Source: Obrimoposthia wandeli
Lineage: Eukaryota
Assembly: GCA_977020255.1 (NCBI GenBank)
Contig: CDROCS010000066.1
Span: forward strand, 62,001-126,000
DNA length: 64,000 nucleotides
Direction of reading: 5' to 3'
Below the pieces are notes generated by a model. That model was not told where the DNA came from. It searched no databases and saw only the letters and a list, made by a program, of their open reading frames with translations. Shown piece after piece: positions 25,459 through 26,020 of the stretch. A program made the translations under genes and the position numbers. How positions within the stretch are numbered: position 1 is the first letter of the stretch; the number at the start of each line of letters is the position of its first letter.

Positions 25459-26020
25459 TGTTAGGTTTAGGAATTAGGAAATTAAAATAATTAGTCGATT
25501 AAATACTAAAATAAAAATCCTTGAAAGCAAGGTTGAAAATTAAATTAAATATTAATTTTAGATTCAAAATTAAAATTAGTGGAAGTTAGGATAAAAATTA
25601 GGAGGACCACGAAGGTCGTGTATAGTGTGGGATATATAAGGTTAGATTAATTAACCCAAAAGTGCAAAAAAGCAAAATAAGGGAACTGTCAGCAGAAAGA
25701 AAATCTAACGTCAATCAAAGGTAAGCACATTTTCGTGCAGTTAATTTGGACTAATTAAATTAATTCAGCTGCCGCCAGAACCGGACTCACGCTAGAATAT
25801 TCAGCTAATTTCATTTAACAGCTGCCAAGCCCAGACCAAGTCGACTATATAAGTCGCTGGAGAAACTAGAAGAAAAAAGAGGCACAAAAAATCGATCACC
25901 TGAAGTTTGTCAGAACGAAACAGGAATCAATATCCCAAGTCGACCGAAGCAGCAACCGGAGAAATAGACAGGTGAAATTTTGGTGTTTGTAATCATTAAG
26001 AAATAAACTATTTTAGATCA
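25459..26020 (+). promoter_or_regulatory. LTR-like module A
   Basis: TG start; TATATAA at 25633 and 25846; donors AAG|GTAAGC (25721) and CAG|GTGAAA (25972); AATAAA near 26002; ends TTTAGATCA. Confidence 0.75.

Follow-up and report, generated by a model that had tools for sequence, protein, structure and literature searches.

A Young, Internally Deleted Ty3/Gypsy Insertion Whose Two LTRs Are Identical Only over U3

Introduction

Canonical reverse transcription of an LTR retrotransposon gives two identical LTRs. DIRS/Ngaro elements are built differently, with split direct repeats and a tyrosine recombinase, and have neither a DDE integrase nor a target-site duplication (TSD). Mikkelsen (1998) is said to have described R-U5-mediated second transfer in MLV vectors with a modified primer site, and Lauermann and Boeke (1997) reportedly dealt with plus-strand transfer in Ty1. 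The element described here, which lies in a window of 64,000 nucleotides (the whole stretch of DNA analysed, to which all positions refer), would, on the reading that we prefer, share with these two systems a template lacking the primer site, priming by a co-packaged RNA, extension to the RNA 5' end and an LTR-mediated second transfer. In contrast, R-U5 was reportedly present and near-identical there, in engineered and selected constructs, whereas the present case is natural, with U5 missing and R about 77% alike over 110 nt.

A breakpoint at the U3/R border is what intermolecular strand transfer ordinarily leaves behind (PMC6894440; HIV, PMC5651808), and an intermolecular first transfer turns both LTRs into U3/R mosaics (PMC6894440; Onsen, PMC5668417; HIV, PMC5651808). 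Our element resembles these Onsen and HIV recombinants in its U3-R breakpoint and in having two parents of one family, but there both product LTRs are the same mosaic, whereas here the two LTRs differ. Asymmetric LTRs, ascribed to reverse transcription, are recorded for 26 of 88 HIV-1 proviruses in another study (PMC9278108), and in these too the two LTRs of one integrated copy differ; there, however, most cases are deletions in a 3' LTR that otherwise matches its partner, while here the 5' LTR is cut and its R comes from another LTR type.

The element may belong with Burro, a giant planarian Gypsy (PMC6431247) and the closest described system, whose layout is like the gag-fusion domain-protease-RT order of the relatives reported below; its tandem repeats and its accessory ubiquitin and signalling ORFs also fit. 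The present copy differs in measuring 12.1 kb rather than more than 30 kb, in lacking gag-env-PR-RT, and in carrying a 1.97-kb LTR together with phosphatase and RING ORFs downstream of the integrase. The region of the env-like fusion domain is deleted in it, although five of the five close relatives scanned have that domain. Defective Gypsy derivatives, U3/R recombination and R-mediated second transfer are thus already known as parts. Their combination is seen here in one copy, and the literature searched, with most subscription papers and Repbase outside it, listed no naturally occurring retrotransposon in which identity was limited to U3 and the primer site was missing.

Results

Limits and Insertion of the Element

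The element is a single TG..CA Gypsy insertion, young, cleanly integrated and internally deleted, and represents a defective derivative of a Ty3/Gypsy LTR retrotransposon (Table 1). It occupies 12,144 bp (25459-37602) between TG..CA termini flanked by a perfect 4-bp TSD, ATAG. To place its right end, each CA in 37300-37800 was tested against the left flank for a match of 4 to 6 bp, and only that at 37602 fitted; an LTR end at 37499 was dropped, as it had no TSD. The insertion sits in the gag zinc knuckle of an older Gypsy element whose own LTRs (21916-22301 and 39109-39542) are 75% identical, and the zinc-knuckle frame of this host reaches one side of the insertion and resumes on the other, each side being read separately. 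A DIRS/Ngaro origin was ruled out, given the rve integrase, the 4-bp TSD and the lack of any recombinase match in the five element ORFs scanned.

Table 1. Coordinates of the insertion, its host and its parts within the window.
Feature	Position	Strand	Remarks
Host Gypsy, older, decayed	21916..39542	-	carries the insertion in its own gag zinc knuckle
Left TSD, ATAG	25455..25458	+	matches the right flank after CA 37602
5' U3	25459..25667	+	starts with TG; holds TATA1 and the predicted +1; equals 35632-35840
A-type R region, 5' LTR, truncated	25668..26708	+	motif order as in B
ORF1 remnant, encoding RNase H, integrase (H2C2 and rve) and an extension	26699..29269	+	856 codons, first Met at 26720
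Deletion junction between mid-LTR and RNase H	26706..26708	+	2-3 shared bases, overlap read by hand
ORF2	29270..33697	+	1,475 codons; two dual-specificity phosphatase stretches (DSPc, 9e-41); hydrophobic segments
Three short RING-finger ORFs	33740-34117, 34118-34483, 34769-35320	+	zf-RING_2, E 5e-9 to 3e-8
Tract before the 3' LTR, expected polypurine-tract position	35597..35631	+	C-rich, not purine-rich; predicted hairpin
Complete 3' LTR (module B)	35632..37602	+	1,971 bp, TG..CA
Right TSD, ATAG	37603..37606	+	adjoins the CA ending at 37602

The Two LTRs and the Deletion Junction

The preliminary description divided the element into two modules, A on the left and B on the right, and took B to be internal. 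B is instead the whole 3' LTR, with its terminal CA followed directly by the TSD. Downstream of its U3 (35632-35840) it shows TATA2 at 35998, a 43-nt intron-like stretch (36099-36141), two tandem arrays (array 1, 36147-36711; array 2, 36736-37123), an AATAAA at 37392 and a short U5, the R/U5 border being inferred from the sole AATAAA downstream of U3. Module A, which had been regarded as a module of a separate kind, is rather a truncated LTR of another type, since the A-type sequence continues as an LTR elsewhere; it is the 5' LTR of the element, cut midway and joined to RNase H. Its R region contains a donor-like site at 25721, E-boxes, TATA2 at 25846, a 45-nt intron-like stretch (25972-26016), an array of 9.2 units of 65 bp (26032-26629) and a further donor-like site at 26695. 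The 5' LTR is 1,250 bp long vs. 1,971 bp for the 3' LTR, and only 209 bp are identical between them.

Both LTRs follow one motif order, namely TATA1, donor, E-box, TATA2, an intron-like stretch of 43-45 nt, array and donor. Along 25633-26700 and 35806-36730, a tandem TATA pair and three donor-like sites plus one acceptor around the intron-like stretch were noted in both types. The tandem arrays behind these conserved motifs differ, with 65-bp units in A vs. units of about 34 bp in B. This arrangement suggests a long, modular R region, exchangeable and with putative alternative first exons.

At its right edge, the 5' LTR passes directly into RNase H, so that U5, the primer-binding site, gag, protease and RT are absent; the part lost at the 5' side extends from the LTR (about 0.87 kb of it) through the primer site as far as RNase H. 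The 3' end of the LTR occurs only once in the window, so that a 5' U5 and primer site are missing. The A-type match runs to 26707, and one base fits either side of the joint; a junction with an overlap of 2-3 bases could have arisen by RT jumping or by end joining. Splicing was rejected as the source of the deletion, since the junction lies 11-13 nt downstream of the donor-like site and lacks GT/AG ends (by hand).

Immediately upstream of the 3' LTR, a hairpin is predicted at 35575-35640 (-13.5 kcal/mol, a value without shuffle control), and a similar word recurs near 37257-37290; for a 15-bp repeat (35582/37270), 0.26 occurrences are expected by chance. Between the last RING ORF and the 3' LTR there are three copies of a perfect 23-bp repeat (35316-35384). 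The Rfam family search gave no match, and nothing convincing came from the inverted-repeat search.

The 209-bp Identity and Its End Point

The two modules were said to be identical base for base over 209 bp up to the predicted transcription start, and both points were borne out: the 209 nt of 25459-25667 match 35632-35840 exactly, exact extension being impossible on either side, and the last identical base lies 34 nt past the first T and 28 nt past the final A of TATATAA (TATA1, 25633-25639). General spacing rules of Pol II promoters provide two candidate +1 pyrimidine-purine steps, at 25664 (TATA+31) and 25666 (TATA+33), and the identity ends 1-3 nt beyond them. The 209 bp thus behave as U3, beginning at the TG terminus beside the TSD and ending at the predicted +1. 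Divergence between the two modules had also been called abrupt, which is accurate for the perfect identity but not for the homology, as 84 of 109 aligned bases are still identical (77%) between 25668-25777 and 35841-35962 (score 33, against -24 +/- 6 and a maximum of -5 in 200 shuffles), and 128 of 183 between 25778-26031 and 35963-36146 (score -25; shuffles -63 +/- 6). The tandem arrays of A and B are unrelated (score -39; shuffles -45 +/- 9).

A match of this length is far beyond chance, and derivation of both U3 copies from one template is supported, because two independent family members would match over 209 nt with a probability of only 0.004-0.019, at a divergence of 1.9-2.6% that was measured on eight listed coding-region contigs of run X5 and not on U3. 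The breakpoint itself is only an upper bound: with the U3 native to A-type and B-type LTRs not among the sequences recovered, the true crossover may lie anywhere in U3. TATA2, present in both LTRs, is conserved to the same extent as TATA1. With no difference in 209 positions, U3 divergence has a 95% upper bound of 1.4%; together with the intact TSD and the two intact long ORFs, this supports a young age for the event, although "very recent" cannot be refined further.

Coding Capacity and Relatives

The ORF1 product matches RT_RNaseH (2e-38), Integrase_H2C2 (6e-19) and rve (2e-13); the order RNase H then DDE integrase is that of Ty3/Gypsy, with RT absent from this copy. No match to RT, protease or gag was obtained in any of the five element ORFs scanned. 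ORF1 and ORF2 share one frame, with a single stop between them (29267-29269), and relatives extend their polyprotein past the integrase, several of them (P0004, P0009, P0121) carrying a second protease there.

For neither ORF1 nor ORF2 was an exact-sequence entry found in the protein collection searched. The nearest full-length relatives are 49-55% identical over RNase H-integrase, and the long ones are polyproteins of 2,600-4,060 aa in the order gag-fusion glycoprotein-protease-RT-RNase H-integrase, gag and protease being separated by a mononegavirus-like fusion domain in all five close relatives scanned; one long relative has ubiquitin and ankyrin domains as well. Three relatives (P0002-P0004) start at RNase H; as these may reflect contig edges or internal starts, they were not counted as RT-less forms. 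In a quick tree of the RNase H-integrase region (93 rows from P0001-P0040, P0121-P0175 and other fusion-domain matches, all with at least 480 aligned residues), the ORF1 protein falls within a clade of 23 rows (SH-aLRT 96), 11 of them bearing the fusion domain.

Single-protein locus scans returned no relative among viral contigs or genome contigs. Alignment scans yielded 80 metagenome and 10 viral loci, of which only L001 (54%) is close, and this stops short of an LTR; when the element was compared with all 90 loci by blastn, matches were confined to RNase H/integrase, and a 24-nt U3/TATA pattern had 0 matches in metagenome contigs. After its polyprotein, L001 carries different accessory ORFs (7268-10371), one of them exonuclease-like by eye, and accessory cargo varies within the clade.

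Other Copies of the Family

Five sequencing runs contain the stretch, four from one sample and one a marine metagenome, all as contigs, and four of the five were examined at likeness 85. In all four, the contigs matching RNase H (59, 49, 47 and 1) end at 26706 and share the same differing upstream sequence, which, compared by hand with the linker of 22 of 22 relatives, matches the RT-RNase H linker; RT is therefore located there in the other copies and was deleted in this one. The 26706-26708 junction did not recur among the contigs, joints and loose ends listed, the last two being a minority of the total; as summed depth in X1 is about 1,250 just to its left against about 900,000 in ORF1, it is rare at best. 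None of the listed contigs spans the whole element.

One contig in X1 and one in X4 (none in X2) join A-type sequence at 26707 to 36735, the start of array 2 of B, and the A-type therefore continues elsewhere as a normal LTR; this joint is represented by one contig per run, with a 30-nt side at likeness 85, in two of three runs of one sample. The depth of these contigs is 303 (X1) and 156 (X4) vs. about 4-8 for the listed flank contigs. The sample with this joint may be the source of the assembly itself. In addition, contigs of X2 and X4 pass from A-type to B-type sequence 45 nt past the break (25712 to 35899; a weak joint, with a side of 24 nt), which may be another mosaic or a third LTR type.

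Summed depth in X1 amounted to about 900,000 for ORF1, 700,000 for the LTR 3' end and 116,000 for the bin with the 5' U3, and to about 1,250 for the A array (just left of the junction) and 1,020 for the B array. This suggests a very large family whose LTRs share U3 and the 3' end but fall into many R types, among which A and B are both minor, although depth is not a copy number.

Discussion

Proposed Origin

The reading that we favour is a non-canonical second strand transfer, since the 5' end of the copy carries neither U5 nor a primer site. An RNA lacking the primer site would have been primed by a co-packaged helper and would have gained its U3 through R pairing; we assign this a probability of roughly 0.55. 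The parent would be a Burro-like Gypsy family, large and present in many copies, with LTRs alike in U3 and the 3' part but of different R types. An A-type RNA without U5, primer site, gag, protease and RT, lost through an earlier deletion or a template jump in the same round, would have been packaged with a B-type helper RNA. A template of this kind, having no primer site, can neither self-prime nor undergo second transfer in the usual way. Minus-strand strong-stop DNA, started on the helper, would bring a B-type R and U5 to the 3' end, and the minus strand would then be copied along the defective RNA up to its capped end, at TATA1+31 to +33; run-off at the cap would force the boundary to +1. 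This strand, deprived of a primer site, may have annealed to plus-strand strong-stop DNA via the partly homologous start of R, a pairing that needs only the match of about 77% present, and copied U3 from it. The product, inserted normally by the integrase, would have the same U3 at both ends, an A-type R at the 5' end and a B-type R-U5 at the 3' end. The structure, the deletion, the single integration and the shared template of the two U3 copies are established by the sequence data; we infer the start site, the priming by the helper, the run-off at the cap and the parent of the U3 and of the internal part.

Such a helper-primed route, reported so far mainly for engineered retroviruses, is the simplest single cause, accounting for the lost primer site and the LTR asymmetry together. 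It retains the transfer suggested in the preliminary description, which was supposed to need no full terminal repeat; the family, however, does have one, the complete 1,971-bp 3' LTR. Likewise, the idea that only U3 was copied from an internal module holds for the 209 bp, which act as a U3 of one template, but the module in question is the 3' LTR. Against this route count the second TATA with conserved motifs in both LTRs and a +1 that is predicted, as well as the long unpaired tail left on the plus strand, which would need re-priming or host repair. In HIV, moreover, divergence in R disfavours intermolecular first transfer (PMC5651808), which also weighs against it.

Alternative Explanations

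The main rival, less likely than helper priming, is DNA repair after insertion, in which a young B/B element broke in its 5' half and the left end invaded an A-type LTR via U3, copied about 1 kb and was rejoined at RNase H over 2-3 bases, with the rest lost; LTR conversion and a separate deletion would give the same result. The short overlap at the junction fits end joining, and a family depth thousands-fold above that of the flanks implies many donors, depth again not being a copy number. If U3 is about 98% alike between the LTR types and these diverge beyond it, a crossover at a random point of U3 would keep all 209 positions identical with a probability of 0.19-0.25, and the coincidence with +1 is therefore weak evidence; that 98%, however, was taken from coding-region contigs and not from U3. 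Repair would also demand either that several kb were lost and the template was switched twice, or that a very young copy underwent two events independently, and it predicts a boundary at +1 only through the family's own architecture. An unlikely variant of the trans-primed origin is that the structure is heritable, belonging to a sub-lineage without primer site or RT that is always primed in trans. In such a lineage, U3 alone would be homogenised in each round, the 5' R would be its own and the 3' R-U5 would be renewed from the helper of that round, and the elements would still have an LTR-driven ORF from which to supply RNase H-integrase as well as the phosphatase and RING proteins.

Less probable still is a second-strand transfer of the intermolecular kind, involving two primed complexes that carried the same U3, the initial product having a 5' U3-R(A)-U5 and a 3' U3-R(B)-U5 and a later, unrelated deletion having taken the primer-site region. 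Intermolecular second transfer has been proposed for HIV recombinants and asymmetric proviruses (PMC5651808, PMC9278108), and the weak joint between 25712 and 35899 would be a further A/B mosaic; yet two parents with a base-identical U3 but an R only 50-77% identical are required, plus a second rare event. We consider least probable of all an assembly chimera, in which the path left the insertion within the shared U3, ran through an A-type deleted copy and returned. The very high copy number of the family and the absence of a spanning contig among those listed would permit it, but the TSD and the host frame are consistent, ORF1 and ORF2 are unbroken over 856 and 1,475 codons, and some real DNA molecule must carry the 2-3-base join between A and RNase H.

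Should the helper-primed second transfer be correct, the element would document, in nature and in an animal-type Gypsy, a second-strand transfer that is primer-site-independent and for which a short, imperfect R match without U5 suffices. Elements without a primer site of their own could then still be copied and integrated, LTR divergence could be large at the moment of insertion, giving misleading age estimates, and the break would mark where genomic RNA starts in a giant Gypsy family that is still unstudied and whose LTR is long and modular, with two promoters. If the heritable trans-primed lineage were true, its ends would never be identical, and LTR finders and dating methods would miss or misdate the whole lineage, whereas under DNA repair this would be an ordinary rearranged copy.

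Sequences around the Insertion

The nested Gypsy elements are enclosed by an inverted repeat of about 900 bp (20226-21125 and 45489-46357), AT-rich and 74% identical, probably two copies of an old DNA element. Further features were noted on the right side of the host: a decayed non-LTR retrotransposon at 41284-43603 (RVT_1, 2e-22), with an endonuclease-like fragment downstream by eye, and a tRNA-Leu(TAA) gene detected by ARAGORN on the minus strand at 45235-45317.
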